Positions 1 to 36,652 of a stretch of DNA of 56,690 nt are shown here, in pieces; the first letter of the stretch is position 1, and each line of letters opens with the position of its first letter. The translations under genes were made by a program, and so were the position numbers. This DNA comes from an uncultured delta proteobacterium. GTDB lineage: Bacteria > Desulfobacterota > Syntrophobacteria > BM002. The stretch lies in assembly GCA_963712115.1 (NCBI GenBank), contig CAVQGX010000025.1, positions 1-56,690 on the forward strand. Reading direction: 5' to 3'. A model generated the notes under the pieces. It had not been told where the DNA came from and did not search any database. It saw nothing but the letters and a program-made list of their open reading frames with translations.

Positions 1-66
1 GGCGGGGGTAGCAGGCCAAACCCCCCGCCGCTCGGTGGGTTTTGTAGGAGGGGAATAGCCCCTCCT
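1..66. other. Two GC-rich hairpins downstream of the CoA-transferase operon
   Basis: GGCGGGGG..CCCCCGCC (1-29) and AGGAGGGG-AATAG-CCCCTCCT (46-66). No U-tract on the minus strand, so possibly mRNA-stabilising rather than a terminator. Confidence 0.4.
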
Positions 67-78
67 GGGTGGTGAATC

Positions 79-504
79 TTATGGAGCAATGAAATCAAGG
101 ACGAAGCTTAGCTTCATCTTGTCCTCAGGCCACATCTTGGTGCTAATCTGGTCTTTGCCGGGCCAGACATCCTTGTCATTGATCTTCTCAACGATCAGCT
201 CCAGAAAATGAAACTCCGTGAGCTGGTACTTGACTATGGCCTCAGGCGGAAGCAGCACCGCAAGCCCCGATTCCATGGACAGTTTCCACTCAAAGGTTTC
301 ATTGGGCTCATGGGTCATCTCCCCAGTTTTGCCGGTAAATACCTTGAGCAGCTTACCAGAGATCTTGTCATTGGGCTTGACTCCGTACTCTTCATAGATC
401 TCGTCTGATATGTGCCACCACAGACCGCGAAAGCCTGTCTTCACATACCCTTTGACGAGCATGGGATCGAACCCGCAAACACCCACGCGGCATTTCTCAG
501 GCAT
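79..504 (-). CDS. Hypothetical protein (141 aa), last visible gene of the CoA-transferase operon
   Basis: AGGAGG RBS before ATG; codon usage like the neighbouring genes; no recognisable family. Confidence 0.8.
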   Translation of the reverse strand: MPEKCRVGVCGFDPMLVKGYVKTGFRGLWWHISDEIYEEYGVKPNDKISGKLLKVFTGKTGEMTHEPNETFEWKLSMESGLAVLLPPEAIVKYQLTEFHFLELIVEKINDKDVWPGKDQISTKMWPEDKMKLSFVLDFIAP

Positions 505-546
505 GCTCTACCTCCTTTTGGTTCTATTTGCAGCATAAGCTCAAGT

Positions 547-879
547 TCATTTCCGCCAACTGTAACTGGAGTATTCCACAGGCTTATGCTCGGATGCTTT
601 TTCAAGTTGTTTGCTGTTAGCTTCTTCCACTGCCTGGCGTACTTCCTCAACCTGGCTGTAGCAATAGTTGAGAAACTCTTGCGCCTCAGGCCAGGTGAGA
701 TGGTCGTTTTGGAACAACCTCTGGACGAAGGGGGAGACGTGGGTAGAGATCTCATCCCTAAAATCCTCCAGCAGATATTCACCCTGCCCATCGTCCGGCA
801 CCCAGCCGAGATAGCTCCTCTTCCATCTGAGCACCATGGTCTTGAGGGTCTCGAGTTCTTTTACAACGTTCTCTTCCAT
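547..879 (-). CDS. Hypothetical acidic helical protein (110 aa)
   Basis: Starts 1 nt after the upstream stop; operon-like packing. Confidence 0.75.
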   Translation of the reverse strand: MEENVVKELETLKTMVLRWKRSYLGWVPDDGQGEYLLEDFRDEISTHVSPFVQRLFQNDHLTWPEAQEFLNYCYSQVEEVRQAVEEANSKQLEKASEHKPVEYSSYSWRK

Positions 880-880
880 G

Positions 881-1117
881 CTACTTCGCCACCTTCTTTG
901 ACTCGAAGGCGTAACACTTCTTGACCACGTTGAAGTCAGCCACGCCCCAGTAAAACGGCCAGTGAATCTTCATGCAATAGCCAATAAGGTCCGCCGGAGG
1001 AAACTTGGAGCCCTCGATCACAGGCTTGAGGTACCTGCAATCCCAACATACATGATCAGACTCCTTCTCCGGCTTCAATACCTTGTCAAGGAATTCTTGC
1101 GGCGTTAACTCTGCCAT
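881..1117 (-). CDS. Small 4-Cys protein (78 aa), possible [4Fe-4S] subunit (BssC-like pattern)
   Basis: C-x2-C-x20-C-x19-C-YAF; AAGGAG RBS. Confidence 0.75.
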   Translation of the reverse strand: MAELTPQEFLDKVLKPEKESDHVCWDCRYLKPVIEGSKFPPADLIGYCMKIHWPFYWGVADFNVVKKCYAFESKKVAK

Positions 1118-1135
1118 GCGCTACTCCTTTCTCTA

Positions 1136-1621
1136 TTACCAGTCCTTCACTTCGCCCTTTTTCTTCTTCTGCTGATACTCCTCCCATACCTCAGGCGACA
1201 GCCTCTGGATATCCCAGTTGAATGGGTAGCTTCCGGCTATGCCGCCGTCGGGCGGCTGCGGCCGCCAGCCCCTTACCGGCCTGCCCCGTATGCTGAACTT
1301 CACCATGTCCGGCACACCCAGGTAAATGTCCCTGGGCAGACACTGGAAGGGTCTGGTCCTGCCCTCTACACCCGGACTATAGTTGGAGTAGCCGTCCAAG
1401 GGCTTGTCCGCATAAAGCGGGCTGGTGTCAGGCTTCTCGCCGGGCCTGTCCTCCGGGCCCTTGTACATGTGGCCCTGGATCATGTGGATGTAGTAGACTG
1501 CACCGCATTCGGCACAGTTGATTTTACCTTCCCAGTTCCAGAAACAGTAAGGATCCAGGTAGTTAACCGTGTTACAGGGTTTTCCACCCACATCTTTTTT
1601 GCACCAGATTATGTCACACAC
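1136..1621 (-). CDS. Cys-rich hypothetical protein (161 aa), putative metal-binding
   Basis: N-terminal Cys cluster including CAEC; GTG start after an AGGAGG RBS. Confidence 0.8.
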   Translation of the reverse strand: MCDIIWCKKDVGGKPCNTVNYLDPYCFWNWEGKINCAECGAVYYIHMIQGHMYKGPEDRPGEKPDTSPLYADKPLDGYSNYSPGVEGRTRPFQCLPRDIYLGVPDMVKFSIRGRPVRGWRPQPPDGGIAGSYPFNWDIQRLSPEVWEEYQQKKKKGEVKDW

Positions 1622-1635
1622 AGTTCATCCCTCCT

Positions 1636-3066
1636 TTATATCCAGGCTTTCTCATACCACTCTTCGATGGTCTTGGTTGGATAGCCGAGCAGCTCGTGGT
1701 AGATCTTGACGTTGTCAGCACCAACCGGCCGCCAGATCCAGTAAAGTCTCCTCGGGGTTTTCTCCATCAGGCCGGCACCGTAGGTACCCATCACACCTAC
1801 ATCTCCAAAGATGGGATCCTCCTGCCACCTGACGGTCCCCCTGGTCCTCCAGTGCTCGGACTCGTAGACCTCCTTGTCGTTCATCACCGGTTCGGCCAAA
1901 AGCCCGGCATCCTGGCAGACCTTTACCACCTGGGACCTGGACTTGTCCTTAGCCCACTGTTCCAGAGCCGCGTAGATTTCCACCTGAGCCTCGGCCCTGA
2001 CCCTCTGATCGTGAGCCTTGTATTTGTCGAGAAGGCCTTTGTTGCCGGTGATCTTGCAGAGCTCTGCGAAGTCCTCATCCTGGAAGGCACTGATCATGGC
2101 ATACCTGGCGCAAAACTTTTCCTGCGGGTTCTTGGCATCCGGAAAGTCGGACTTGCCGCAGAGAATGATGCCGTGGGCGCAAAGCTGGGTGTCCCAGTTG
2201 CCCCACCTCTGGCGCACAATGCCGAACCTGCCGTAGAGCGGCGCCGCAAAGCCCAGACACCTGGTGGCCGCCTGCACCTGGGAGAACTCGATCATGGTGC
2301 CCAGCCCGGTCTTCCGCCGCCAGTGGAGGGCTGCCAGAATCCCGAAGGTGATCTGGGTGCCGGAGTACCAGTCGATGCACCAGTTGGAGTGCTTGGCAGC
2401 GTGGCCGCCAAAGCTTTCGTGGAAGCCGGTTACCGAGGCGAGCCCGGCGTGGGCCTGCCCCAGAATGTCGTAGGAGCCGCCGAATACCTTGGGCCCATAG
2501 CCGAAACCTCCACCCCACACATAGATGAACCGGGGGTTCATCTCGAGCAGGTAGCGGTAGCTCTGTCTCCACCTGTCAAAGGTGCCAGGGCGGTAGCATT
2601 CGGTAAGACCATCGGACATCTTCACCAGGGAGTAGAAGGCCTCCTTCATCTCGTCCAGGTGATAGTCCATACTGATGTGGTACTCGTTGGGATTGGCGTT
2701 CAAATATCCCATACCCGTGCCGGTCATGGGCCTGGTGTCGTGCAAGGGATAGAGATAGGTCTCGTTGAAAGGAGCACAGTGCCGCATGGGATCACCCATC
2801 CGCGGCATCTCCACCTTGATCACGTCGGCCCCGAGCTCAGCCAAATTGCTGACGGAATGAGGCGTGAAGATGTACATGGTGGTGCTCATCCACCGGATGC
2901 CCTTGAGAGACTGGGGCTTGCCGAACTCATTGCCCGGATCGAACTTGGCCCGGCAGTACTCCTCATAGGGCATCTTCATCTCTTCGAGCTCTTCCTTGCT
3001 CTTGGGGCCCGGCAGATCCTCAAGTCTTGTTTCACGTGGATCTTTGTTATACTTGAGTTTATGCAT
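1636..3066 (-). CDS. Class III (CaiB/BaiF) CoA-transferase, subunit 2
   Basis: [33 protein letters not shown] motifs; Asp at the expected catalytic position (CIDWYSG). Confidence 0.85.
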
Positions 3067-3067
3067 C

Positions 3068-4555
3068 TTATATAACCCCCTTCTCCTTGAGTTCGTTGAC
3101 TTCTGTTTGACCTATACCGCACAGCTTCATAAAGACCTCATAGTTATCGTAGCCGAGGGGCCTGCCCAACTGCTTGACCCGGTGCGGTGTCCTCATCTGG
3201 TAGTTGTTGGGTGACACCGAGAAAAGCAGGGTCCCATAGTGATCGGTATCAATGGTGCAGACCCAGGGGCGATACACGAAGTGGGGGAACTCGGAGACCT
3301 CGTCGATGAACAGAACCGGACCGGCTGCAATCTCGTACTCCAGAAGCTTCTGCTCGGCCTCGATGCGGTTGATGTCCCTCAGCCAACGGGTGGTGAGGGT
3401 ATAGGTCTTGATCAGCATCTCCAGGGCGTTCCTGCCGCCCATCTCTTTGAGGATGGGATCTTCGTGGATCAGCCGGCCAAACTGGGGGAAATCACGCTCA
3501 ATGCACATGCCGATGCGGTACCACAGCCGGTCGGTCTGCCCGCCGATCATCATGTAGCCGTCCCGGCAGGGGTTCCACTCGTACTGGTTCAGGTTGGGGT
3601 CCCAGCCGCCGGTCCTCGCCTTGATGGAGGCGTTGAACATATACCAGCTGATGTCAAAGTCCAGAATGTCCATCTGGGTCTCGGCACCGGTCACCTCACA
3701 GAACTGACCCTCACCGGTGAACTCATCTCTCCAGTACAGGGCTGCCAGCAGGGTGTTTGCCCCCTGCTCACCGGCAACAAAATCAGCAAACCAGACACCG
3801 GACCTGGTGGGCGAGCCGCCGCTCTCTCTGGGGAGCTGGTCCTGGGGAAAGCCGGTGTTGTGGACGAAGGCGTTGGAGCAGCCACCAAAGGGCTCCAGGG
3901 TCCACTGGCCGAACTTGGACGTCTTATCCTTGTAGGGGCCCCAGGTGCCGCGCACGGCTATATTCAGATAGACCAGCCTGGGGAACTCCTTGCGAAGGTG
4001 CCGGTAGCCCAGACCAAGGCTGTCCATGTAGCCCGCAGGCATCTCATCGATCACCCCATCGGCCATGCCGACCAGCCTCCTGTAAATCTTACGACCCTCC
4101 TCGGTCTCGAGGTTCAGGGTTACGGACTTCTGTCCCCTCATCTCGTGGATGAAGTCCAGGCCGCATTTTTCGCCGGTAATCTTGCTCTCCAGCATGTATT
4201 CCTTTCTGCCAAAGGGAGTGAGTTGCCTTGCGGGGTCTCCTTCGGGGGGCTCGATGTTGATCACCTCGGCCCCGGCCTCGCAAAGCAAACCGCCGCAGAA
4301 CTTGTGGCCCATTCTCCAGAGCCCTACACAGACAAACCTGAATCCTTGCAGGGCCTCGGGTTTAGCAAAGCAGTACTCATACCTGAGGTTGTCCTCGCAC
4401 CATTTGCCGAAATCTTCCGCCTTCCTTCTGGCGTACACCTTTGCCACTTCTTCCGGCGAAGGAGGCGGCGTCACCGGCCAGGGCCTGATGTCGGGATGCA
4501 TCAGATCGATGGTGTCCGCCCTGCTGTTTATTTCTACATCTTTCTTTTCTGCCAT
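3068..4555 (-). CDS. Class III (CaiB/BaiF) CoA-transferase, subunit 1
   Basis: [28 protein letters not shown] motifs; FADFVAG Asp. Start moved to ATG 4555 (GGAGG RBS). Confidence 0.85.
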
Positions 4556-4896
4556 GTTTTGACCTCCCATCTTTCGGTTTTTCTGAAACCAATGCCACAG
4601 TCCTCCCCTAGTCGATAATCAGGTTCGGTAATTCAGACCCGCAAGGTCACTTAGCGTTAAATAGAAACCTTAACTGGGAGGAGGCGGTCTTTTGTTTTAG
4701 TTCTCACCTCCTTTCTACTAGTGTAAATGGTTGTATACTGAATTGGGTCAATTGAGCTGAAAAACCAGCTATAACCCAGCCTTTTGGTCACCGCTGAAGA
4801 AGTTGATCCGCTGTCAATCAGCCTTTGGATGCCAAGCACTTTTGATTTAATATCTTGAGCGGATGCTTATGAGCGAATGAGAAGTAAAACGGCTTG

Positions 4897-5276
4897 CGTC
4901 TTACTGGTGGATTTATTACAAGTTTCCTGCCAGGAATAGAGCATCAAAGCGACTTTTTATAATATGTCTTAATTTGATGTAATTTTAAATAGTTGCTGGC
5001 TGGAAGGAAATGCAGTTTCTGGGCTCTGGCAGGGTTGAAACTTGGGGAAGATCACCATCGCTGTATCAAACCGGACCCTATTTTAGCAGAAGATTGGCGA
5101 ATACCCAGACAAGGTAGGGTTTTCTGGACTGTCAAAAAAAGGACCCCTTTCTGTTCGTATTTCAAACAGGAGCAGTTCCTTTCTTCAGACTGTAGCGCCG
5201 AATTTTGCTATGCAACGTACTACGGCTGATTTTGAGGCTTCGAGCAGCTTCATGCTTGTTCCAGTTGGATTCCTGG
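4897..5276. repeat. 380-bp diverged direct repeat, copy A (promoter region plus 3' HTH stub of the sigma54 activator)
   Basis: Colinear with 8974-9353. 5161-5276 encodes [37 protein letters not shown] on the minus strand. Confidence 0.9.
4918..4932 (-). promoter_or_regulatory. Candidate sigma54 promoter for the CoA-transferase operon (variant -12)
   Basis: TGGCAG-GAAAC-TTGT, identical in repeat copy B (8995-9009) although the flanks have diverged; GT instead of GC at -12. Confidence 0.5.
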
Positions 5277-5277
5277 T

Positions 5278-5577
5278 TTATTCGCTCCTGAGCTTTTCAA
5301 GTAGTTCTTCTAGTTCTTCATGCTGTCCCGTTTTATCAAGATGGCCGAGTGATATAAAAGCGTCTAGGATGAAACTTAGATTATCTGCCTTACTTCTAAA
5401 AACCTCCATCAGCATTGCTACTATCAGACTCTGCTTGCCACCATAAGCAGCCCTGATCACATCGCCTGTTTTTCTTTCCGACTGGGGGTTTTCGGCGATG
5501 ATCAGAAAGTTTTCAACGTCGTGACTCTGTAGTGTCTCAACGGCCTGCCTTAAGAAATCGCTATGCTTATCTCCCAT
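5278..5577 (-). CDS. Hypothetical protein (99 aa)
   Basis: AGGAG/AAGGA upstream of ATG; plausible protein composition. Confidence 0.65.
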   Translation of the reverse strand: MGDKHSDFLRQAVETLQSHDVENFLIIAENPQSERKTGDVIRAAYGGKQSLIVAMLMEVFRSKADNLSFILDAFISLGHLDKTGQHEELEELLEKLRSE

Positions 5578-5674
5578 TCCTTTTTCTCCTTACCTCAAAG
5601 TGTTCTGTCATGGATTTTCAGATATCATCTAACACACCTTCCTCTTATTAGCCCGCAAAATGTCAACCGACAAA

Positions 5675-6361
5675 TCAGAGCGATAAACGTTTTGCGCAGG
5701 AGGCTGATCCAGAATAAGGAGTTTCGGTCACTTCGTAGATATAGTAAAGCCTCAAATAGTTGTAGTATTTGTAGTTGAGCGTCGGAACAAAGGTTGCCTT
5801 AGCAAAAGCAGGCGGTAAAGAGCTAAGCATGCCCCGTTTCATCACATTCTCTCCGACAAATTTATGGATTAATACAGAGCCTGGTAAATCTACCCAATGG
5901 CTCTCCAAGACTTCTGGTAAGTGGGCTATGAGAGCAATGCCCTCGTCAACAGTTAGAGCAAATCTTTCCTCATCATTGAAGGTCTTAACGCACTTCTTGG
6001 GTGTTGTATTCTTCATGGCGTAACCGTTTTCGACATCTATTAAAAGATAGGGTTTGTCCGGAGTCGACACACCTTTGGCGTTCTCGAACCACTCGGGCTT
6101 GATGATATGCTCCAATTGAATGTCATTGATACTTTGCCTTATTCTTTCGAGTTGGTAACTTAGAGGCACAATAATATTAGGTAAAACGATCAAAATGGGA
6201 ATATGGTTCTCTTCTATCTTAGTATCTTTGTCATTCTCAACGAGCAGTTGTTTTAAGGGCATGATGTGGCGGTTGACAAAATCACTTTCGCTCAGACCAG
6301 TAGGTATATGGAACTTTCTTTCTATAATTGTGCTTACTTGTTTAGCAAAAAGCTCTACCAA
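5675..6361 (-). CDS. Hypothetical protein, resembles DUF5701 family
   Basis: PYLLIDVENG and LTVDEGIAL..PEVL segments recalled from DUF5701 proteins; start uncertain. Confidence 0.6.
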   Translation of the reverse strand: MVELFAKQVSTIIERKFHIPTGLSESDFVNRHIMPLKQLLVENDKDTKIEENHIPILIVLPNIIVPLSYQLERIRQSINDIQLEHIIKPEWFENAKGVSTPDKPYLLIDVENGYAMKNTTPKKCVKTFNDEERFALTVDEGIALIAHLPEVLESHWVDLPGSVLIHKFVGENVMKRGMLSSLPPAFAKATFVPTLNYKYYNYLRLYYIYEVTETPYSGSASCAKRLSL

Positions 6362-6646
6362 AATATCTACGGCTCCTCCATGAAATATCCGGGCTATTTT
6401 TTAGCATTGACATCTTTTCTGTGTTCTGACTATCCTGATTGTAAGCAGCTTTCTTTTTCTAGTTGGTCCGAACTCAGAAAACCTAAATTCTGCATTTCCT
6501 CGCGCATATTGTTCCAACACCCCCGAAAAATCAGAGACAAGTGAGAAGGATATTCTCTCTCCTTAGTGGCTGCATGCCATCTGGCAAAACTGGCACTTTA
6601 GAACAGGTTTCCGCTCCGACCCAAGTGCATTGAAAGGAGAGCAGTC

Positions 6647-7090
6647 ATGAGCGCTAGATTCGCCAACAAGAATGACATTAACAAAGTATTGGAAATAGAG
6701 CGTCTGTCGTTCTTACAGCCGTGGGATTATCATATCTTCAAATTGGCATTAGACGATATATTTCTGGTCTTTGACGAGCAAGACATCTCGGGTTACTTAA
6801 TTGCTGTTTGTTGTTCTAAGAATATCAGATCTACTATTATGAAAATGGCTGTTCACCCTGAGCACAGACGAAAAGGTGTAGCCACAGCCCTACTCAATCG
6901 AGTTTTGGAAATACTGAAGGAAAAGAAAATCATAGATGTCTGCCTGAATGTTGAAATGATAAGAAAACCAGCAATAGCATTATATGAGAAATTTGGGTTT
7001 AAGATTATGCAGACAATTCACCTGGATTATGAAGATGATCTTGCCGATGATGCCTTCTATATAATGAAGTTAATTCTTGCCGAGAGTTAG
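6647..7090 (+). CDS. RimI-like GNAT acetyltransferase
   Basis: IERLSF..PW, AVHPEHRRKGVA (acetyl-CoA motif A), AIALYEKFGF. Confidence 0.85.
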   Translation: MSARFANKNDINKVLEIERLSFLQPWDYHIFKLALDDIFLVFDEQDISGYLIAVCCSKNIRSTIMKMAVHPEHRRKGVATALLNRVLEILKEKKIIDVCLNVEMIRKPAIALYEKFGFKIMQTIHLDYEDDLADDAFYIMKLILAES

Positions 7091-7093
7091 ATT

Positions 7094-7414
7094 TTAATTC
7101 TCACGCCTGATCACTCTTATACCATCATCTGTCATTATGACCTCCTTTCTCCCAGGCTCCTCTAGAACATTTTTCAAATTTCGCTTTTCAAACAAATCAA
7201 TGACCTCATCCGGTGTGTTATGATGCAAGTAATCATAGTCAAGACTGAAAAAATGTTCGATCTTATGACCACGGTCTTCAAGGCGAAATATGTGTTTTCT
7301 AAAGAGTTGGCATCTGAGAGCGTCCTCTATCTTTTCGATTAGACATTCTGGAAATAGTGATTGAAGATAAGATGCAATGGCTTCAAGCTTGTCTGCCCAT
7401 TCTTGATAAGTCAT
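7094..7414 (-). CDS. Hypothetical protein (106 aa)
   Basis: Purine-rich RBS; convergent with the GNAT gene. Confidence 0.6.
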   Translation of the reverse strand: MTYQEWADKLEAIASYLQSLFPECLIEKIEDALRCQLFRKHIFRLEDRGHKIEHFFSLDYDYLHHNTPDEVIDLFEKRNLKNVLEEPGRKEVIMTDDGIRVIRREN

Positions 7415-7499
7415 CCTCTTTTCCTTCTTTTCTTCTTCGGTTATCCCCGACTTGCTCTGGGATTAAGTTCTCTTTGCTGTATCGCAGTTCGCCAAAGCC

Positions 7500-7617
7500 G
7501 TCATTCCTGACGAGCACCGCTTTGCGGGGCGAGATCCGGAGTCCAGTGAAAAATCAATATAATCAAATTTCTCCTGGATCCCGGCTCGCGTCCGCAGGCG
7601 GACTTGGCCGGGATGAC
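7500..7617. repeat. GTCATTCC...GGGATGAC palindromic REP-like element
   Basis: Inverted ends with internal hairpins; related elements at 38737-38827 and 39746-39809. Confidence 0.6.
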
Positions 7618-7784
7618 GAATTGCTACACAGCTTCTTTTACGGGCAACTCCTGGGCCCATCCCATTCTCTTCGCTGAACGGAAATGTTAATATTTTGTCT
7701 AATTATCTTCTACCTAGGTCGACAAATTGCAATTCTACAGATTATGATATTTTTCTAAACAAGCATCAGAAAGGGTTGAAAAAA

Positions 7785-7955
7785 ATGTGGATTGCGAGAC
7801 TTTCTAGTGGTGTTGAGATCGATGTTTCCGGCAGTCTAAGAGTTTTAGAGATCGAAAATCGCTTTTATGTGGTAGGGCAGGAAATGTTGATTCCGGTGAA
7901 AAGCCGTGAGAGAGGCCGAGAAGAAATCAGGAAGATAAAAGAGGGTGAATGTTGA
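7785..7955 (+). CDS. Small hypothetical protein (56 aa)
   Basis: MWIARLSSGVEIDV..; ATG at 7785 is in frame with the track ORF. Confidence 0.5.
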   Translation: MWIARLSSGVEIDVSGSLRVLEIENRFYVVGQEMLIPVKSRERGREEIRKIKEGEC

Positions 7956-8438
7956 AGGCCGCCGCTTACTGCCGTGTAAGTAGTAGTAGATAAAGAGAAA
8001 GAAATCAGTATCCCTTGATACTCTGCAACTATGGTTAATGAAACCGGCAGGAAAAACCCAAAGGACAAGGCCCTGAAACTGGCCTTGAATGCCCTTGGCT
8101 GGGCGGATGACCCCATCCGGGAATTTGTCTCACTGGAATCTTTACTTTTCATGGCTCCCAGAGTATCCAGGGGGCCCTGGTTTAATTTTAGCCCGGATAT
8201 TTCACGAGTTGCCTGCTACGACCGCTTCAGGAACTCAGATTTTAGATTTTAGATTTCAGATTGAAGGGTGTCTGATTCATATTGGTTATTTGAATCAAAC
8301 AAGAATGCAACTTTAACTTCAACCGTGTGCTTTGTCTTACTCGATCTTGTGCAATCTCAAATCCGCAATCCGCATTCGTCGACCCGGTGGCACGCCCATC
8401 TCCACGGTCTCGCGACAGCAATTCATGAAACACCCGGT

Positions 8439-8627
8439 CTAGAACTTGATCTCAAAAGGCTCGATCTTTTTATTGCACCGGCTGCAGATGTATTCAGTTT
8501 CCCTCACATCATCAGCGGAATATGAATCCGTTATACCCCTCTGCGCCGAGATCATTTCTTCCATTCTAAGGCAATCCCTGCAAACGACCTCATCTCCAAC
8601 CTGAACCGCCGAAAAGATCTCTGCCAT
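8439..8627 (-). CDS. Small zinc-ribbon protein (62 aa)
   Basis: CRDC...CSRC; GGAGG RBS. Confidence 0.7.
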   Translation of the reverse strand: MAEIFSAVQVGDEVVCRDCLRMEEMISAQRGITDSYSADDVRETEYICSRCNKKIEPFEIKF

Positions 8628-8973
8628 TGTCTAATCCTCCCTCTGTTTGACTGTTAAAGATAAACGAAGGACAATAGCCATCTGCTCCAAAAAAACGTTG
8701 GCTTGCCGAACCCCGTGTGATCGATCAGGTATCACAAAGGCGAGAAAGTGAACTTTAGCACAATCTTTCCCAAATCGCAAAGAGAAAATTATCCCCGAGG
8801 GCGAACAAAAATGCAGACTACGACTTCAATCTTCATCCAGGATGGGATACAAAAAGTCACACGGTGACGATCGCTTGGGATCGGATTGAAAATCTCTATG
8901 TCCATGGCCTCGTAATATCTGCCGGAAAGATGCAGGGCCATGCCCTTGTATAATTGAGATCTAATACGGATTT

Positions 8974-9353
8974 CGTCTTACTGCAGGACCAATTACAAGT
9001 TTCCTGCCAGGGAACAAGGCACCAGGGCAACTTTTCAAGATGTGTCTTAATTTAACGTTATTTTAAATAGTTAGTGGATGGAAGAGAAAAAGTTTGGGCG
9101 CTACGGCTGGATCGAATTAGGGGATAGGTGGGTGATGCTGTATTAATTTGGACCCTATTTGGGCAGAAAAGTCCTGAACACTTACTCACAGACAGGTTTC
9201 CTGGACTGTCGGGAAAAAGACCCCTTTCTGTTCGTATTTCAAACAGGGACAGTTCCTTTCTTCAGGCTGTAGCGCCGAATTTTGCTATACAAAGTACTGC
9301 GACTGATTTTGAGGCTTCGAGCTGCTTCATGCTTGTTCCAGTTGGATTCCTGG
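8974..9353. repeat. 380-bp diverged direct repeat, copy B
   Basis: Colinear with 4897-5276; includes the intact 3' end of the activator gene. Confidence 0.9.
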
Positions 9354-11527
9354 AGCACTCCGAGAATCAACCGCCGCTCGTTTTCGGCAAGAGAGGTGGA
9401 GGGTGGATCTGCGGGGGTCTGCTTGAGGAACTGGGGCAGATGCCTTCTCTCCACCACCGAATCCTGGGCGAGAATAACAGCGTGGCTTATGGCGTTTTCC
9501 AACTGGCGGACATTGCCAGGATAGTCGTGATCCATAAGGAGTTGCATAGCACCGGATGAGAAAGAGTGGATCGCCTTCCCCTCTTTGAGGGTGTACTTGC
9601 CGAGAAAATGTTTGGCTAGAAGGGGAATGTCTTCTATACGATCGCGGAGAGGAGGCAAGTGTATAGAGATGACGTTGAGCCTGTAATAAAGGTCATCCCT
9701 AAATCGCCCTTCTTCAACCTCGCGGTAAAGGTCACGATTTGTCGCAGCCAGCACCCTTACGTCAGCCTCGAGGGTTTCCTCCCCACCCACTCGTTCAAAG
9801 GAGTGATCCTGGAGAAATCTGAGCAATAACACTTGAGTGGCCGCAGCAATATCACCAATTTCATCGAGAAAAAGGGTGCCTCCCTTGGCACGTTCTATGC
9901 GTCCCATCTTTCTCTTGATAGCGCCGGTAAAGGCTCCTTTTTCATGGCCGAAAAGTTCACTCTCCAAAAGGGTGGGCGAATAGGCTGAGCAGTTGGCAGC
10001 GATAAAGGGCCCTTTTCGGCGGTGACTTTGTCGGTGGATGGCTTGGGCGACCAGTTCTTTGCCTGTGCCGTTTTCGCCCGTGATTAGTACGGTTGCATCG
10101 GAAGCGGCTACCAGATCAATCAGTTCATAGACGCTCTGCATCTCGTCACTCTGACCAATAATTTTTCCGTGAGAGGTTTTCTCGGCTACTTTTTCGCGGA
10201 GATGATTTATTTCATTTTGGTGAACAATGAGATGACGGATGTATCCGGCTATTTGACTGAAAAAAGTCAGGAGGAAGTGCAAATCATCCCGGGCGTATTC
10301 TTGATGGATTGATGAGCCCAAAAGTGAATAGCCAATGCATTGGTGGGGTGAGGAGATGGGCAGACCAAACCAATTAGTATAGCTCTTTGAAATGACTTTC
10401 AGGAAGGTGGGAATGTCATTACTGTGTTCAGAACTGACTATGCGGTGTTTATTGAGCGTTCTCAGATATTGGAGAAAATCTGCAACTAATTCAGATCGCT
10501 CGATTTCTTTTTGGGCACGATGCGAAGGCTCCACCCGATCAGAGTGAACATCAGCCAATGGGAGAAAACCTGTGCTTTCTGAATCTAAAAAGAAAAGGAG
10601 AAGGTCTGAGTTGGGAAAGAGTTGCTGACTAGTTTCCTGGATGAAATCAATCAACTCCGAAAGAGAATTTTTGTTGTTAACCTGGCGAGAGAGCTCGAAG
10701 AGTGTTTCCAGCTGATGCTGGGTCTTCTGTAATTCTTTGGAACGGAAGGCCAGGGCCTCCTCCATTCTCCTTTTTTCCGTGACGTCCCGCTCCAGGCGAA
10801 TGATCGAGCTTATCTCACCCTGAGCATCTAAAAGCGGATAAGTTGCAATTTCGAGCATGCGATCCACGCCCTCTGCATTTGGATAGATCTTATCCGATAA
10901 GGCCGGACGTTTGGTACGTATAGTCTCCTCCATTGGACACTTAATGCCCGATTCCTTACAGGGTGTTGGCCTGTCAAGCATAATCTCATGACATCTTTGA
11001 CCAACTGATTTTGGCGACTCCAACCCTACGCGAGCATTAAAGGCGTCGTTCGCCTGTAAAATGGTGAAGTTATCGGGATCCACAACAATCAGGCTGTCGG
11101 TGATGCTATTAATGATCTCCTCGTTGAATTCTCTAGCTGATTGCAGCTGGCTTTCGAGTTGTTTACGCTTAGAAATATCTATTGCGTGCTCCACCGCCTG
11201 CGTAGTTACTCCATGGTGATCATTGATTGGATAAGAATACACTTCAAAAATGCGCTCTTTTCCATCTGGCACAGGGACTCGCTTTTCGAGCATCAGCGTC
11301 TCACCGGTGCGGAAAACCTCCTGCACGTGACAAGCATCGCAAATGGCCGAGCGCTGGTAGAATACCTCATAGCAAAATTTGCCCAGCAACTGCTCTTCGT
11401 CCAGGTGAAAGAGCTCCATTAAAGCTTTATTGACCTTGAGAATGCGAAACTCCCGGTCATAGATGGCAAAGGGATCGGTTACGCTGTCAAAAACCCTGGT
11501 GAGGAATTTTTCATCGTAGGCGCTCAT
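9239..11527 (-). CDS. Sigma54-dependent activator (PAS-PAS-GAF-like-AAA-HTH)
   Basis: [22 protein letters not shown]-terminal Fis HTH; two Cys-bearing PAS domains. Confidence 0.95.
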
Positions 11528-12324: not shown

Positions 12325-13128
12325 TCAAATTGCTGCTGGCGGTTCGGCTATTTTGTGGAGGGGAGACTGTTCAGTCTGCTCTATCCCCGATCTGAATTGG
12401 AAGTGAGTCTCAACGATGTCATTGACCTTTTTGTAGAGTGCTCTCAGCGGAATGCTTGCTGGACAGGCTTCTTCGCATAGTCCACAATCCACACAGCGAC
12501 CGATCATATGGAGGGCCCTTACCAGATGGAACATGGGAAGGTCCGGTGGGATTTCCCCTTTTGTTACCACATCCTCACTTTCAAGGCTGCATTCTTTGCA
12601 AAAGCACATTGGACAAACATTTCGGCAGCCATAACATTTAATGCATTTTTCAAATTCGGCTCTCCAATCCTTGAACCTTTGCAGGGGGGGTTTTTCTTCC
12701 CACTCCACCGGTCGGGGATCCTTTGGTGCCACCTGTTTACCTTCGAGCCATTCATCAGGATAGGGCAGTCCGCAGTTGCACGCTTGAGCCAACTCTTCAG
12801 AGCAAGCCACCCCTATGACCACTACCTGTTGGAGTGAGATCTGATTCCATGCGGCGAGCGCCCTCAAGGCCCGCTGGTCGCAACCTCTAACTAGAATGCC
12901 AAAGTTTGCCTCTGAATGGTTCTGAAGCAGTTTGGTCAGGATTTTGCTGAGAGGATAGCGGGCGTCACCAGTTCTTACTCCATCACCAATAGATAGTTGG
13001 TCGACTTCATCGGGGGAAACAAAAAGGTGCGGTTTGATCTGTCCATTTTCCTTCTTGAGTGCGAGAAAACCTTTTATTTGCTCGGTGGTGAGAAGTTCCT
13101 TCACTTTGGTCTTGATGGCATCATGCAT
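12325..13128 (-). CDS. Fe-S protein of FdhB/FrhB-like type with 2x[4Fe-4S], Hdr-associated
   Basis: VRGCD, CIKCYGCRNVCPMCFC, GRCVDCGLCEEACP; ATG 13128 with GGAG RBS. Confidence 0.85.
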   Translation of the reverse strand: MHDAIKTKVKELLTTEQIKGFLALKKENGQIKPHLFVSPDEVDQLSIGDGVRTGDARYPLSKILTKLLQNHSEANFGILVRGCDQRALRALAAWNQISLQQVVVIGVACSEELAQACNCGLPYPDEWLEGKQVAPKDPRPVEWEEKPPLQRFKDWRAEFEKCIKCYGCRNVCPMCFCKECSLESEDVVTKGEIPPDLPMFHLVRALHMIGRCVDCGLCEEACPASIPLRALYKKVNDIVETHFQFRSGIEQTEQSPLHKIAEPPAAI

Positions 13129-13203
13129 CTTGCTTCTCCACGTTAAGCCCTGAAGGTCAGCTTTGCTCTGTTTAGCTTCTTGTCCCAAAAATCCATTAAG
13201 GAG

Positions 13204-13662
13204 TTAGGTTCGGAGACTCTCAGCTTGCAGCTCAGAACCTGGAATGGACCACTCGGAACTGTAATTAAGAGGGCCTAGATCCCTAATTCTCTCTGTGAAT
13301 CGGGTAATTTCCTCGGCAAAGCGAGGTCCTTCAGCCGATGAAACCCAAACTAGATTCAATCGCTCACCTTCAATGCCAACAAATTCGAGTAGATCCTTCA
13401 GTACGGACACTCTTTGCGCTGTCAGATAATTACCATACTGGTAATGACATTCACCCAGGTGTCAGCCTCCAACGAAAACACCGTCTGTTCCCATTTGAAA
13501 GGCCTTCAGAATGTTTTCAAAAGAAACGGACGAAGAGCACATGACTCGAATAGCCCGCACGTTGGCTGGGTACTGAAGGCGACCCACGCCAGCCAGATCT
13601 GCACCTGCGTAAGCGCACCAGTTACAGAGAAAAGCCAGAATCTTAGGTTCAAAATCCGCCAT
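13204..13662 (-). CDS. mvhD: MvhD/FlxD-type [2Fe-2S] subunit, selenoprotein (152 aa, Sec67)
   Basis: Two track ORFs join through in-frame TGA 13464-13462, giving FLCNWC..VMC..GG-U-HLGECHY..WVSSAEG. The TGA sits at the conserved GC(H)xGxCHY Cys. Confidence 0.92.
13420..13449 (-). promoter_or_regulatory. SECIS-like hairpin of mvhD
   Basis: TGTC-ATTACCA-GTA-TGGTAAT-TATCT-GACA just downstream of the UGA. Confidence 0.7.
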
Positions 13663-13678
13663 GTTCTCTCTCCCTTAG

Positions 13679-16600
13679 CTAGATTCCTCTCATGGATGCA
13701 ACTATCTGAGCGTTGAGTTGCTGGCGGGCAAAACCAGCCAACCGCGCGCTCCCAGAAGGACAAGACGCGGCACAGGAGCCACAACCTTTACAGATGGCTA
13801 TGTTTACCTGGCAGATGTGTTTATCAGCGAGAAAGTCGATGGCCCCGTAGGAACAGGCGTTCAAACACCCCTGACAACCCACGCAGGTTTCCGCATCTAT
13901 GTGTGCCACCAGAGCGCTGCTCACCCAGACTTTCTTGGCCAGTACGGACACGGTTCGCGCTGCCGCCGCCATGGCCTGAGCCAAAGTTTCCTCAATGTCT
14001 TTTGGGTAGTGAGCAAGGCCGCAAACAAAAATACCGTCCGTGGCGAAGTCCACCGGTCTCAACTTCACATGCGCTTCGGCAAAGAAACCGTCTTGATTGA
14101 GGGGAACTTTGAGATGCCGGGCTATCTCTTCGTTTGCAGCCGGTTCCATGGCAGTGGCCAGGTTTATGAAGTCCGCCTGTATAGATATTGGGCGCCGGAA
14201 CATCTGATCGATCACCTCGACCTCTAGCTCCCCCTTTTCTCCTACGGCCACTTTGGGTGGTTCTTCTAAGCCATACCGGATGAACATGATCCCCTTGGCC
14301 CGAGCCTCGGTATAGAGTGCTTCCTTAAACCCATAAGTGCGTATGTCCCGATAGAGAATGTAGATATCAATGTCCGGGTTGATTTCCTTTATCTTCATAG
14401 CAGTGATCAAACTATTGGAACAGCAAATTTGGCTGCAATAAGGACGTTCGTCGTTCCTTGAGCCCACACACTGAATAAAAACGCAACTTCTCCCCTCGGT
14501 GATCATGGGGTCTTTGCTAACAACCAGATCGTCTAGTTCATGAGATATGAAAACACCAGGATGTTCTCCGTACAGGTACTCTTTGGGGCGATGGGGCACG
14601 CCGCCGGTGGCAACCACCACCGCCCCGTGATCGATGGTCGTTGCTTCCTGGCTGGTGCTTACACTGGTGAGGGTGGTGCGAAAGTTTCCGACAAAACCAC
14701 TCATGTAAGCTACTTGCACACCGAGGTGCACTGTTATTAGGGGGTGTTGACCCACCGCCTCCTGCAAATTCATTCGAAACGATTGGACATCTTCACCTTT
14801 CCATGTCCAGTAGATGTGATTTGCCTGCCCACCTAGGGAATGAGTTTTTTCTACCAGATGAACCTGATAACCACTCTCGGCAATGCTTAAAGCGGCTCTC
14901 ATTCCGGCAAGGCCGCCCCCCACCACCAAAGCCACCGGGGTAATGTTCAGGTGCTGCTCCTCAAGAACTTCCAGGAGGGTGGCCTTGGCTACTGCCATGC
15001 GAACCAGGTCTTTGGCCTTATCGGTGGCAGCATCCGGATCATTTTGGTGCACCCAGGAGTTCTGGTTCCGGATGTTGGCCATCTCAAAGAGATATTTGTT
15101 GAGGCCAGCCGCCTTCATAGTTTCCTGAAAAAGCGGTTCATGGGTCCGGGGCGAACAGGCGGCCACCACTACCCGGTTCAGCTTCTGTTCAGCAAAGACC
15201 TGCCGCATCTTGTCCTGGGCATCCTGGGAACAGGAAAAAAGGTTCTCTTCCGCATACACCACGTTGGGCATAGTCCTGGCATACTCTACCACCTCGGAGA
15301 CCCTCACAACGCCGCCGATATTGACCCCGCAGTCGCAGACAAAGACCCCCACCCGTGGTAACTGAGCAGCAACGTCCAGTTCTTTAGGGTAAGTCTTCTC
15401 TTGGACCAGCGTGCCTCTAGCCGTGGTCAGTTGGCAAGAGGCAGCGCTGGCAGCGGCGCTGGCCTGCATCACCGAGGATGGAATGTCCTTAGGCCCCTGG
15501 AGGACGCCACAGGCGTAAATACCAGGCTTTGAAGTGGACACCGGGGTAAAGCTGCTGGTCTTGGCAAAGTCGTGATGATCCAATTCGATGCCGAGCTTCT
15601 CTGCCAGACCTTTTACACCAGGGTCTGGCTCAAGGCCGACAGATAGCACCACCAGGTCAAATTCCTCTTCAACCCTCCTGCCAGCTTGGTCCGTGTAGCG
15701 GATGAGTTGGTTTCCGTTTTCATCCACTGGGACAATGTTGCTGATCTTCGATTTAATGAAACGCACTCCGATCTCTTTGGCTCGGTTGTAGTATCTCTCA
15801 AAGTCTTTGCCGTAAGTTCGCATGTCAATGTAGAATATGGCCGTATCAAGCGAGTTCTTACTGTGCTCTTTGGCCACAATGGCCTCTTTTATGGCATAGG
15901 TGCAGCAAACCGCTGAACAATAGGGTTTAGTCTCCGGGTGGATATCCCTGGAGCCCACACACTGAAGCCAGGCGATTTTCCTCGGCTCCTTTTCGTCGGA
16001 AGGTCTCACCAGGTGGCCCTGGTAGGGGCCGGTAGCTGCAAGGATTCGTTCAAATTCCAAACTGGTTACCACATTGGGGGATCTATTGTAGCCATAGATA
16101 TCGCGGATAGCCGGACTGAAGGCCCTGGAGCCCGAGGCCAACACTACCGCTCCTACTTTGATGGTTAGTTCTGTTTCCTGGTCCTCAAAATTAATAGCCT
16201 CACTGGGGCAGAGTTTCTCGCATGCCTTACATTTGCCTTTCCCCTTGACGAAATAAATACAATTCTCAGCATCGATCACGTATTTGAGAGGAACTGCCTG
16301 GGCGTATTGCACATAGATGGCTTTGCGCTTGGCGAGACCAGCGTCATATGCATTCGATACCTTCTTGGGACATTTCTCAGCGCATATACCGCAGGCAATA
16401 CATTTCTCCATATCGACATAGCGGGGATACTGCCTGACTCCTATTTCGAAATTTCCTACCTCCCCAGAGATGCTTTCCACCTCAGAGAGGGTTAGAAGCT
16501 CAATGTTGAGATGCCGGCCGACCTCGACCAGCTTGGGCGAGATAATTCACATGGAACAGTCATTGGTGGGAAAGGTCTTGTCCAGCTGGGACATCATGCC

Positions 16601-16726
16601 TCCTATGGATGCGGACCTTTCCACCAGGTAGACATAGTAGCCGGAATCGGCCAAGTCCAGGGAAGCCTGCATGCCGGCAATGCCACCACCTACCACCATC
16701 ACTGCACCGGTTTTCTTCTGTGTCAT
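13679..16726 (-). CDS. hdrA: Large heterodisulfide reductase subunit A, selenoprotein (1015 aa, Sec60)
   Basis: True start ATG 16726 (AGGAG RBS): [39 protein letters not shown] 16549-16547 in frame with the 933-aa track ORF; two FAD modules (QCVGSR..YCS..CC) and ferredoxin motifs. Confidence 0.93.
16513..16532 (-). promoter_or_regulatory. SECIS-like hairpin of hdrA
   Basis: GCTGGTCG-AGGT-CGGCCGGC starting 14 nt after the UGA; G-rich apical loop. Confidence 0.75.
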
Positions 16727-16793
16727 TTTTCTCCTGCCTTAGATCACCAGAGTAGGTTTATGCTTTTCTTCAACTTTCATGATTGGTGATCTC

Positions 16794-16987
16794 AAATTCG
16801 AAATCCGAAGCACGAAATCCTAAACAAATTCAAATGACCAAAGCACCAAATTCAAAACAAAAAGGCAAACTGAGGAATTAACACACTGAACTGTTGCATT
16901 ACCGAATTCTTTACTCTTTAGAGTTTTGGACATTTGATATTTGAATTTCGGATTTGTTTCGGATTTAGATATTCGGATTTAGGATTT
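16794..16987. repeat. Heptamer-periodic imperfect palindrome between hdrB and hdrA
   Basis: AAATTCGAAATCCGAAGCACGAAATCCTAAAC... / ...GGATTTAGATATTCGGATTTAGGATTT; same family as 51275-51434. Confidence 0.7.
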
Positions 16988-17029
16988 ATTATCCTCCGTC
17001 AAAGCAATAAAATTAGGGCTAAAGAGTAT

Positions 17030-17962
17030 TCACACTTCCGCTACCTCTTCCATTTCCTCTTCCTCTGGCTCTGGTACAAAGAAAAAATGCTCGATGCCGT
17101 CAATAGACAACTGATTCATGCTGAGTCCCAGGGTTTTTCCATCCATACCCATGCTCAGTCCCAAGAGCTGGGGATAAAGAACAGAGGGAAGGTTGAGATT
17201 ATTCCCGCGGCTGGAGAGAATCATCTTCTGTACTGTATCAAACTGAATGTGACAGTAAGTGCAGGCAGCACACAGGTACTCAGCTCCCGATTGCTTGCCG
17301 TCTTTGAGTTTCTTCTCAGTCAAATCCATGGATAGATCATCGTTGATTCCCCAGACAGGGGCCCCACAACAATCGAGCTTGGCTGGCCAGGAGATGCTCT
17401 CAGCTCCGGTCACTTCAACCAGTTGATCAAATATGGCTGGGGCCACCGGATCGTCAAAGGCAACGATCTGGCTTGGCCTGAGAGCGTGACAGCCGTAGTG
17501 GGTGGCGATGTTAAGGCCGGAAAAGGGTTTTTCTATCTTCTCTTTGATAACCCCAATACCCACATCATGGTACAGAAGGGAAAGAAGATGCTTGACCTCA
17601 ACATCTCCCCTGTATTCAAGATATTCCTTCTTGAGAATCCCGTTGATTTCTTCCCGCAAAGAAGCATCTTCCTTGAGGAGATGGTCCGCCTTTTTGAGGC
17701 TGCCGTAACAACACTTGCACAGACTCAAAAGATTCAAATTGTTCTTTTCCGCTAGGGCCAGATTTCTTGCCGCAGCAAGAACAAATGTCTTGTAGTCAAG
17801 ATTCCTTATGGGATAGCCACAGCAGTTAAACTGCTTTATGTCAGCCAATTCCACGCCGAGTCTGGTCAAAATAGCCCTGGTGGAAGTCTCGTATTGACCG
17901 AGACGAGCCGGTATGTTGCAACCGAGAAAGAGTGCGAATTTCATTAGCTTGTCCCCATCCAC
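17030..17962 (-). CDS. hdrB: Heterodisulfide reductase subunit B
   Basis: FLGC, CCGYP, CKCC, HYGCH, CCGAP, CTYC (two CCG domains); may start at ATG 17944. Confidence 0.92.
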   Translation of the reverse strand: MDGDKLMKFALFLGCNIPARLGQYETSTRAILTRLGVELADIKQFNCCGYPIRNLDYKTFVLAAARNLALAEKNNLNLLSLCKCCYGSLKKADHLLKEDASLREEINGILKKEYLEYRGDVEVKHLLSLLYHDVGIGVIKEKIEKPFSGLNIATHYGCHALRPSQIVAFDDPVAPAIFDQLVEVTGAESISWPAKLDCCGAPVWGINDDLSMDLTEKKLKDGKQSGAEYLCAACTYCHIQFDTVQKMILSSRGNNLNLPSVLYPQLLGLSMGMDGKTLGLSMNQLSIDGIEHFFFVPEPEEEEMEEVAEV

Positions 17963-25443: not shown

Positions 25444-25502
25444 AATTAGATTGGCACTGTGGGAGCGTGCATTAAGAGCACATGAAGGGAGGTGTTACTA
25501 TC

Positions 25503-26426: not shown

Positions 26427-26459
26427 CCGGGTCAGAGAACAGTGTAAATCTATATCAAG

Positions 26460-26497
26460 ATTTTGGCCGAGCAACTTGCTCGGCCAAAATGTTTTAT
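26460..26497. terminator. Long perfect hairpin, probable bidirectional terminator
   Basis: ATTTTGGCCGAGCAA-C-TTGCTCGGCCAAAAT then GTTTTAT, between convergent genes. Confidence 0.7.
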
Positions 26498-26692
26498 CCC
26501 TCCGCCAAGGTCAGGGCAAGCTGGCAGCAGACAGCGGGCAGCAGGCAGAGAAAAGCTAAGTACTAGGCCGAGTTCTGGGACTCTATGGTCTATGCTTTTT
26601 CAAATCCGCAATTCGCAATCCGAAATCCCAAATTCCCCAATGCTCCATGCCCCATGCAGGTGAGTGAAGCGTTCAGACGCTTCGCTCGGCCG

Positions 26693-27325: not shown

Positions 27326-27331
27326 CTCAGA

Positions 27332-28687: not shown

Positions 28688-28788
28688 GGTATTCCCTTAT
28701 CTAAATGGCGAGTGAATAACGCCCACCAAGAGATCTGTGCACCATACCCGCCCAGGGATGAGAGCACCGTCTCATTTTGGGGTATTGC

Positions 28789-33305: not shown

Positions 33306-33665
33306 ATGAAAGTGGCCATTATGCTTTACGGCACGAGAGTCTCTCCCAGATTCGGCTACAGTCAGGGGGTCATGGTGGTGGAGGTCAGTGGCCACCAGGA
33401 AATCCGTAAGAAGACTCTGGAGACTGATGATTACTACCCTGAACAGATTCCCACCGTTCTCGGCAAGGAGGGGGTGGAGGTAGTGATTAGCGGCGGGATG
33501 AACAGGCATTTTCAAGATCTTTTTCGATCACAGGGTATCCAAGTGATATGGGGCATCATAGGGGAGGCAGATGATGTGCTGGCGGCTTTTATGACCGGCC
33601 GGCTGATTCCAGGAATGGGTTGCTGTCCTAGGCGCAGACGAAAACGCTTTGGCAGCAGAGGTTAG
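33306..33665 (+). CDS. NifB/NifX-family protein
   Basis: KVAI..VSPRFG..GVEVVISGGM. Confidence 0.85.
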   Translation: MKVAIMLYGTRVSPRFGYSQGVMVVEVSGHQEIRKKTLETDDYYPEQIPTVLGKEGVEVVISGGMNRHFQDLFRSQGIQVIWGIIGEADDVLAAFMTGRLIPGMGCCPRRRRKRFGSRG

Positions 33666-33732
33666 ACCCACATAAGGCACAAATCACAAACATTTCGTGG
33701 CCGATGAGGGTTAAAAAAAGGAGGAATGTATC

Positions 33733-34080: not shown

Positions 34081-34104
34081 AAAACCGAGTAGAAGGGAAC
34101 AAGA

Positions 34105-36640: not shown

Positions 36641-36652
36641 GAGGTGATCAAC

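Follow-up and report, generated by a model that had tools for sequence, protein, structure and literature searches.

A conserved operon in Desulfobacterota and other phyla probably encodes a multi-subunit family III CoA-transferase with small cysteine-rich partners

The window analysed here, a stretch of 56,690 nt from an uncultured delta proteobacterium (GTDB lineage Bacteria; Desulfobacterota; Syntrophobacteria; BM002; GenBank assembly GCA_963712115.1, contig CAVQGX010000025.1, positions 1 to 56,690), carries near its left edge an operon, hereafter the module, which probably encodes an undescribed five-subunit CoA-transferase with a clamped active site. A sequence-only reading had pointed to six tightly packed genes with gaps of 1-42 nt, and six open reading frames (ORFs), all on the minus strand and separated by 1, 14, 18, 1 and 42 nt from A to F, were recovered at the same positions. 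Genes A (3068..4555; 495 aa) and B (1636..3066; 476 aa) encode family III CoA-transferase subunits with N-terminal extensions of about 65 and 50 aa, respectively. They are followed by C (1136..1621; 161 aa), which combines a four-Cys zinc-ribbon/rubredoxin-like knuckle with a Pro/Gly-rich tail; D (881..1117; 78 aa), with a CX2CX20CX19C pattern and an invariant His22; E (547..879; 110 aa), a helical-looking, fast-evolving and dispensable protein; and F (79..504; 141 aa), modelled as an AbrB/RIFT-type beta-barrel.

A purine-rich GGAG, GGAGG or GGGGG site lies upstream of each of the six ORFs, in agreement with the strong ribosome-binding sites noticed earlier. The small ORFs are coding, as their differences from same-length homologues fall mostly at the third codon position (positions 1/2/3: C, 742/583/2349; D, 52/40/135; E, 333/260/510; F, 405/259/950). 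The GC-rich third positions reported for the whole operon proved to be a property of A to D, whose GC content at this position (GC3) is 0.77, 0.78, 0.73 and 0.71 compared with 0.42-0.66 in the 23 other ORFs of the window, and whose share of NNC codons is 0.60-0.83 against 0.38-0.56; E (GC3 0.63, NNC 0.57) and F (GC3 0.66, NNC 0.47) lie at or inside the ordinary range. From this codon bias and a conserved stand-alone Shine-Dalgarno element described below, we infer that the operon is highly expressed.

Both transferase subunits match the Pfam family CoA_transf_3 (PF02515), A with 198 and B with 215 bits for a gathering cut-off of 23.3. The domain starts at about residue 69 in A and 54 in B, compared with residues 5-12 in several solved chains, and the long N-terminal extensions singled out by the sequence-only reading are therefore real; A and B are 26% identical with the extensions, which are homologous, included. 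The pair, which had also been described as divergent, falls far below every cut-off of the curated NCBIfam subfamilies (Frc, UctC/YfdE, CaiB, succinyl-CoA:mesaconate, succinate-glutarate and Mct), the best scores against their cut-offs being 123/442, 114/700, 93/750, 80/522 and 70/413 bits. Among solved structures, the B profile is closest to a benzylsuccinate CoA-transferase chain (9fn0_B, E-value 9e-30), with Frc-type enzymes close behind, and the A profile is nearest to Frc-like chains.

In family III CoA-transferases, the Asp residue at the position of Frc Asp169 is the catalytic nucleophile. Alignment to solved members places an Asp at this position in both subunits, Asp232 in 79 of 79 B sequences and Asp258 in 66 of 67 A sequences. 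Members of this family form interlocked dimers, in which each active site is built from the large domain of one subunit and the small domain of the other. In the module, conservation is distributed asymmetrically: columns conserved at 95% or more make up 67% of the small domain of A (residues 296-430) and 56-57% of the large domain of B, against 32-41% of the large domain of A. Taken with the site architecture of the family, this asymmetry suggests that the site formed by B Asp232 and the A small domain is probably the main working one, B carrying it. Canonical motifs have been rewritten and then frozen, namely a 'YIFTP' loop in B and a 'WDPNLNQY' stretch in A, the latter at what we take to be the place of the Frc glycine loop, and aromatic residues are abundant in the loops around the active site.

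None of C, D, E and F matches a Pfam or NCBIfam family at an E-value of 0.01 or below, and searches of PDB sequences with C, D and F returned nothing meaningful. Two of these small partners had been called Cys-rich, and this is borne out, with seven Cys in C and four in D. In C, Cys7, Cys16, Cys36 and Cys39 are invariant across 68 sequences in a zinc-ribbon/rubredoxin arrangement, Cys94 being a fifth invariant Cys; weak matches to zinc-ribbon Pfam models occur in 21 of these 68 members, and the Atlas gave nothing informative for C. A relationship between C and F was considered and rejected, as profile comparison found them unrelated. In D, His22, Cys24, Cys27, Cys48 and Cys68 are kept in all 73 sequences. 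Its structure model is mediocre (pLDDT 66) and the five best Foldseek rows (4pkf_B, 9pzj_B, 9pzj_C, 2y8n_B and 3h31) are each weak (E-values 0.78-3.9); they correspond to BSS beta (twice), BSS gamma, HPAD gamma and a HiPIP. In an independent fold search (VIA), the sole chain of 48,161 to reach a Z of at least 2 was HPAD gamma (2y8n_B; Z 2.2, root-mean-square deviation (rmsd) 2.5, 41 aligned residues), a second look at BSS gamma (9pzj_C) gave a Z of 2.8 (rmsd 2.9, 49 aligned), and BssC_TutF appears in the Atlas as a weak lead (0.84, rank 28). D is thus probably a [4Fe-4S] subunit of the HiPIP-like kind seen in BSS beta/gamma and HPAD gamma; this is graded only as probable because no Pfam or PDB sequence match backs the likeness in fold.

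The model of F is of high quality (pLDDT 94) and resembles PHS018 (2glw; Z 7.4, rmsd 2.9, 88 aligned) and PG0164 (2d9r; Z 7.0, rmsd 2.5, 83 aligned), matches which stand clear of the next row (Z 4.8) and remain below a Z of 8 (Foldseek probability 0.99, E-value 0.02); Pfam gave no support for this AbrB-like/RIFT barrel. Pairwise distances across 28 loci correlate between F and A (0.81), F and B (0.77), and E and the downstream gene G (0.76) but, as shared ancestry inflates such values, this tracking is a lead only. On its strict co-occurrence with the transferases, F is considered a probable fifth subunit. For E, profile searches found no family.

The genome collection (GTDB) was scanned once with B, which identified 261 relatives, and the best 80 loci, in which B is 71-96% identical, were analysed; looser arrangements are possible among the more distant ones. 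Presence was counted only at loci whose contig leaves room for the gene in question. On this basis, A is present at 75 of 75 loci, C at 77 of 77, D at 74 of 74, F at 69 of 69 and E at 67 of 72, and gene order is kept in 75 of 75. All of A, B, C, D and F occur in fixed order at each of the 64 loci with room for the full set, E being also present at 59 of them. The operon is a conserved unit. The four small orphan partners proposed earlier hence separate into C, D and F, which are never lost, and E, which is accessory and not part of the core. Since the small genes travel with the transferases, and the pair lies outside the curated subfamilies, neither a pair dissociated from its small partners nor a pair belonging to a characterised clade that works alone was found. 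At the sequence level, the nucleophilic Asp is retained in A and B, both family III CoA-transferase folds, and strict co-inheritance links C, D and F to this pair.

Among these 80 loci, carriers belong mostly to Desulfobacterota and unplaced 'Deltaproteobacteria', other labels being Acidobacteriota, Deferrimicrobiota, Chloroflexota, Nitrospinota, Aquificota and Methylomirabilota. Identity for A to D is 60-96% over seven or more phyla, with a median divergence of 0.23-0.28, C and D being about as conserved as the catalytic subunits. Two carriers are cultured, Desulfacinum infernum DSM 9756 and D. hydrothermale DSM 13146. Homologues of C are named in records of Thermoplasmata, Archaeoglobus, Methanocellales and Hydrothermarchaeota, by name only and without gene context. 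The tree built for B was a quick one. A plasmid search did not find C and, among the best matches listed, A and B reached at most 31% and 28% identity; a search of 50%-representative sequences with D returned 12 matches, none fused to a known domain. The search for longer forms of C scored 7999 candidates and constitutes weak evidence. Two apparent fusions were discarded, a C-D fusion in L076 being an N-gap artefact and a B-C 'fusion' (P0253) looking like a frameshifted record. Three genomes appear twice among the loci (L006/L070, L004/L054 and L001/L012), Eth-SRB2 and ALJrbin.12 carry distinct copies of the module with different flanks, and the second Spart_124 copy is frameshifted and located at a contig end.

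The conservation pattern led us to expect that partners dock on the half formed by the A small domain and the B large domain, and the chains for modelling were chosen on this basis. A four-chain prediction (A 200-495, B 12-476, D 3-74 and C), scored for C as partner from purpose-built alignments, gave an ipSAE of 0.83 (runs of 0.83, 0.82 and 0.85), compared with 0.38 for the best control, in which B was replaced, and 0.00 for the other two. The runs agree in at least 82% of contacts and the partner pLDDT is at least 82. The mark applied is reached by 116 of 157 solved complexes and by 2 of 215 mismatched pairs, counts that are only rough for a four-chain job. In the model, C contacts A at residues 236-245, 304-314 and 358-393, B at 98-116, 312-319, 414-424 and 443-476, and D along its N-terminal helix (residues 6, 9, 10, 13 and 14). 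This predicted interface sits on family-specific insertions, and on its A side conservation is higher than elsewhere in A (0.90 versus 0.83, p 0.01). No C-like chain was found among solved sequences, which makes it less likely that the model recalls a known complex. The prediction thus supports that C binds across the A small domain, the B large domain and D. Collectively, the co-inheritance of the small genes and the predicted docking of C agree with the multi-subunit enzyme inferred from the sequence alone, and a multi-subunit architecture is considered quite likely.

Of the 58 relatives whose contigs leave room, 45 carry a seventh gene, G, after F. It encodes a metallo-beta-lactamase fold with TPR repeats (MBL-TPR), whose metal motif (HxHxDH-H-D-H) is intact in all 44 complete copies, Asp115 being present in 41. 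Both E and G occur at 45 loci, E alone at eight, and neither at five, which form one clade and account for all five of the loci lacking E. E and G are dispensable accessories. Downstream of F or G, 33 of the 80 loci also carry a stand-alone degenerate receiver-like protein with conserved Cys residues (e.g., L031:15650-16078). The operon had been suspected to continue beyond the left edge of the window; in the source lineage, it instead appears to end at F. Two hairpins follow this gene (1..66, minus strand; fold of -33.2 kcal/mol), the second of which (1-29) is a GC hairpin forming the stem of a probable intrinsic terminator, and a T-run comes after this hairpin in the four closest relatives (L001-L004).

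Upstream of A, a PAS-domain sigma54 activator (9239..11527, minus strand; 54-87% identical to its counterparts at the listed loci) is the probable regulator of the module, as judged from the position of its counterparts directly upstream of A in 39 loci. A stand-alone perfect Shine-Dalgarno sequence (AAAGGAGGTGA; 4704..4714, minus strand) precedes A by about 157 nt and is not followed by a start codon. A perfect Shine-Dalgarno (AGGAGGTGA) is found 89-354 nt upstream of A in 38 of 64 leaders, for a background of about 0.9 in 64, and 35 of these 38 sites are likewise devoid of a start codon. In the window, this element can pair into a hairpin; it is a possible mRNA stabiliser, perhaps of the STAB-SD type. 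A sigma54-like -24/-12 element with a relaxed -12 box (4918..4932, minus strand) has equivalents in 12 of 64 leaders against a shuffle mean of 0.98 (maximum 4), with a relaxed pattern picked after seeing the window's own site. The strict consensus is not enriched (4 of 66 leaders; shuffle mean 1.3, maximum 5), a scan for sigma70 promoters and terminators stayed at chance level, and Rfam gave no match on window positions 1-9300.

Genes flanking the module were examined in 229 ORFs compared with Pfam, comprising 54 family representatives, 73 of 204 candidates and 102 others taken nearly all from a 191-candidate list, some being shadow frames. In this sample, which is not exhaustive, no UbiD, glycyl-radical or benzoyl-CoA-reductase family and no conserved beta-oxidation set was found; nor did these family scans show the module to include a conserved electron carrier, flavoprotein, radical-SAM activase or ATPase. 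Neighbours related to acetate or other monocarboxylates occur in three distant lineages. L077 carries Acs, an ADP-forming acetate-CoA ligase and a lactate transporter of the major facilitator superfamily, all above cut-off, along with aldehyde and alcohol dehydrogenases; L078 carries an acetate uptake transporter, above cut-off; and L076 an ActP/MctC-like symporter, below cut-off, with a CBS-DUF294 protein. AOR and an Fe-dependent alcohol dehydrogenase (Fe-ADH) follow the module in five Desulfacinum/Desulfosoma loci, and CooS and a Pat-like acetyltransferase precede it in seven related loci. Five loci are labelled Desulfobacca, a genus of acetate oxidisers.

A 550-aa acyl-CoA ligase is present at 13 of the 80 loci, in several separate branches and never together with the adjacent activator (0 of 55), and a 4HBT (hotdog) thioesterase occupies a similar position at four loci. 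Among solved enzymes, the ligase matches anthranilate- and benzoate-CoA ligases best (232 and 231 bits), but it misses the benzoate-ligase cut-off (324-341 versus 375 bits) and scores about equally with acetate-CoA ligase models. With neighbours split between acetate or monocarboxylate functions and this aryl-CoA-ligase-like protein, an aromatic acid substrate, as known for the paired class III transferases cited in the sequence-only reading, is not established. Weighing the two sets of neighbours, we assign acetyl-CoA/acetate, with moderate confidence, to one of the two sides of the reaction.

Several other genes were noted in the window and around related loci. On the minus strand, positions 12325-19713 hold an Hdr/Mvh-type cluster including an HdrC-like protein fused to a NarI-like membrane domain, HdrB and an Fe-S protein; HdrA (13679-16726) and an MvhD-like protein (13204-13662) each contain one in-frame TGA, consistent with selenocysteine, and the cluster is not kept beside the module in relatives. 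On the plus strand, positions 33306-38707 contain Nitro_FeMo-Co, DUF5320, NUBPL/Mrp and CbiA-4Fe-4S ATPase genes beside a sigma54 activator, a run we take to resemble the Orange Protein complex cluster. Two similar cassettes (25482-30396 and 41128-46834) comprise a histidine kinase, a sigma54 response regulator, an archaemetzincin (M54) and a GcvH-domain protein of about 310 aa, a set which also flanks the module in L012, L025 and L026. A 62-aa four-Cys zinc-finger-like protein (8439-8627, minus strand) and a RimI-like GNAT protein (6647-7090, plus strand) lie near the module in 8 and 7 of the 80 loci, respectively, at varying positions. Amidoligase_2 and/or class II glutamine amidotransferase genes are found near the module in L009, L014, L055 and L061, which represent three separate lineages. 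A U32-family (UbiU/TrhP-like) gene lies within 10 kb in L005, L006, L007, L017, L031 and L077, co-oriented in an apparent operon in L077, and four of these six loci also carry a histone-deacetylase-family gene.

A mechanism for the module can be proposed, to which we give about even chances: A, B, C and D, possibly with F, would constitute a clamped, metal-stabilised heteromeric CoA-transferase of anaerobes, performing ATP-free acyl exchange via an aspartyl anhydride. As expected from the family, A and B would form an interlocked dimer with shared sites, which would place C across the most conserved one (B Asp232 and A 296-430). In the predicted complex, C may strap the A small domain onto the B large domain while holding D. 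D likely binds a [4Fe-4S] cluster and C a Zn or Fe ion, and the two proteins could stiffen or gate the closed active site by analogy with glycyl-radical enzymes, electron carrying not being required. The reaction would proceed via the usual acyl-aspartyl anhydride and aspartyl-CoA intermediates, with acetyl-CoA/acetate on one side of an ATP-independent CoA exchange and another monocarboxylate, or a labile acyl group, on the other. This particular exchange is put forward tentatively, at slightly less than even chances. Where present, E and the MBL-TPR hydrolase may clear stalled acyl adducts or hydrolyse a thioester, and the recurring acyl-CoA ligase or hotdog thioesterase may manage the same acyl-CoA pool.

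Several observations weigh against this proposal. The fold matches of D are individually non-significant (Foldseek E-values of at least 0.78, Z of at most 2.8, pLDDT 66) and the Pfam BssC and BssB models match none of 51 D members at an E-value of 10 or below. F does not share the codon bias of A to D and may have a regulatory role instead. Conservation at the interface does not reach significance in B (p 0.05), C (p 0.05) or D (p 0.22), the conservation test used the same alignments that fed the model, and C still scored 0.38 with B replaced. As regards the substrate, each acetate-type transporter or ligase neighbour comes from one locus only (3 of 80 in all), the CooS/Pat and AOR/ADH contexts are confined to one clade each, and the commonest enzyme neighbour after G is the benzoate/anthranilate-ligase-like protein, which points to an aromatic acid.

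The transferase fold might instead be the acyl-activating half of a new chemistry, with an aldehyde, an alcohol or acetate as product: a combined transferase/lyase such as DddD, an acyl transfer like that of PtmU4, whose acceptor is a nucleophile other than CoA, or redox catalysis by the D cluster. We consider this unlikely, at somewhat under a quarter of our confidence. Both non-canonical uses of the fold have a precedent in the accessible part of PMC6006322, DddD and PtmU4 resembling the module in having two family III domains, which in their case do more than transfer CoA; they differ in being single two-domain chains, for which section 9 of that paper mentions no metal subunits. Motifs that were rewritten and then frozen, the extreme conservation of A to D across phyla, the aldehyde/alcohol dehydrogenases or AOR found downstream in six loci, and metal subunits that a plain transferase would not need all fit such a chemistry. 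Yet the module comes without the conserved electron carrier, flavoprotein, radical-SAM activase or ATPase looked for, the modelled contacts of D are with C, and such clusters have no demonstrated redox role in glycyl-radical enzymes, as far as the accessible text of PMC13450708 goes.

Alternatively, the same complex could act on an aromatic or heteroaromatic acid, as BbsEF and PhtSab do, the clamp protecting a labile aryl-CoA, a proposal to which we give about a fifth of our confidence. It would explain why the benzylsuccinate CoA-transferase chain is the best match of the B profile, why an anthranilate/benzoate-like ligase and a 4HBT-family thioesterase recur beside the module, and why the site loops are rich in aromatic residues. 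It sits poorly with the ligase scores, with the lack of UbiD, glycyl-radical or ring-reductase families among the scanned flanks and with the acetate and lactate transporters that flank distant loci. An ordinary heterodimeric transferase, with the small neighbours acting as regulators or chaperones outside the enzyme, would suit the AbrB-like fold of F, the dispensability of E and the ordinary codon usage of both, but is very improbable because C and D have the same codon bias as A and B, are present wherever there is room for them and are conserved about like the catalytic subunits, and because the complex prediction passes for C.

The family III CoA-transferases known to us are either simple dimers or bound to full-size dehydratases. 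BbsEF (succinyl-CoA:benzylsuccinate CoA-transferase, PDB 9fn0) resembles the proposed heteromeric transferase in having two different family III subunits in an anaerobe, with B nearest to its chain B. The similarity is, however, distant (phmmer E-values of 4e-21 and 1e-14), A is closer to Frc-like chains, and the 9fn0 chains, of about 410 aa, are devoid of N-terminal extensions; we know of no small partner protein for BbsEF, and no bss/bbs-type context was found around the module among the flank ORFs scanned. In HadABC, a family III transferase is bound to an Fe-S dehydratase. FldABC, which is mentioned in PMC13416013, similarly contains such a transferase as a subunit of a larger complex with an Fe-S dehydratase. 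The partners in these systems are full-size catalytic dehydratase subunits, whereas those of the module are proteins of 8-18 kDa from no known family.

PhtSab works with a UbiD decarboxylase. PhtSab/SptAB (succinyl-CoA:phthalate CoA-transferase), named in PMC11659651, is also a family III pair of anaerobes; no UbiD or UbiX lies beside the module in the sampled flanks, and the two systems are set apart by description and not by sequence. The benzene 'Magic' cluster (PMC13101534, accessible part) likewise contains a highly expressed, uncharacterised class III pair from Desulfobacterota (WAC08371/WAC08372). This pair is flanked by FAD oxidoreductases (an FAD/Fe-S trimer) and MaoC dehydratases, has a narrow range and, unlike A and B, has the transferase domain right at the start of both sequences; a search of the supplements of PMC13101534 for three motifs of A, B and C gave no match. 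Its gene content, its range, the starts of its sequences and the missing motifs all speak against the cluster as a counterpart, and it was rejected.

The closest parallels for the small partners are the small subunits of glycyl-radical enzymes (BSS beta/gamma, HPAD gamma and MASS beta/gamma/delta). D would share with them its four-Cys, HiPIP-like character, C its rubredoxin-like knuckle, as in MASS delta, and both kinds would sit on a large catalytic core. In the module, this core would be a dimer of CoA-transferase subunits; the scanned flanks showed no glycyl-radical enzyme, and no match was found at the sequence level. According to the accessible text of PMC13450708, such subunits are HiPIP-like (rubredoxin-like for MASS delta) and serve in solubility, gating and conformational control, a redox role being unproven.

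The core of the proposed enzyme thus belongs to a known family, but its assembly appears to be undescribed. Full-text searches, some of them broad and with subscription papers mostly out of reach, returned no account of the module, and it is not described in the accessible parts of PMC13416013, PMC11659651 and bioRxiv 10.1101/197269. An important anaerobic reaction, currently annotated as 'CaiB plus hypotheticals', would be implied, and families C, D, E and F gain a first functional context. HiPIP-like subunits may extend beyond glycyl-radical enzymes, making their role testable in a non-radical setting, and the cultured Desulfacinum carriers make the module directly testable. It is rather unlikely, yet conceivable, that the module represents a new class of metalloenzyme, in which a rubredoxin-like clamp, together with a HiPIP-like [4Fe-4S] subunit, closes off a CoA-transferase-fold core and the aspartyl anhydride is used for chemistry other than CoA exchange, for example in an ATP-sparing route into or out of acetyl-CoA, or in the activation of a small non-carboxylate substrate. 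If so, it would reveal an unrecognised central pathway common to sulfate reducers, syntrophs, several other bacterial phyla and probably archaea.

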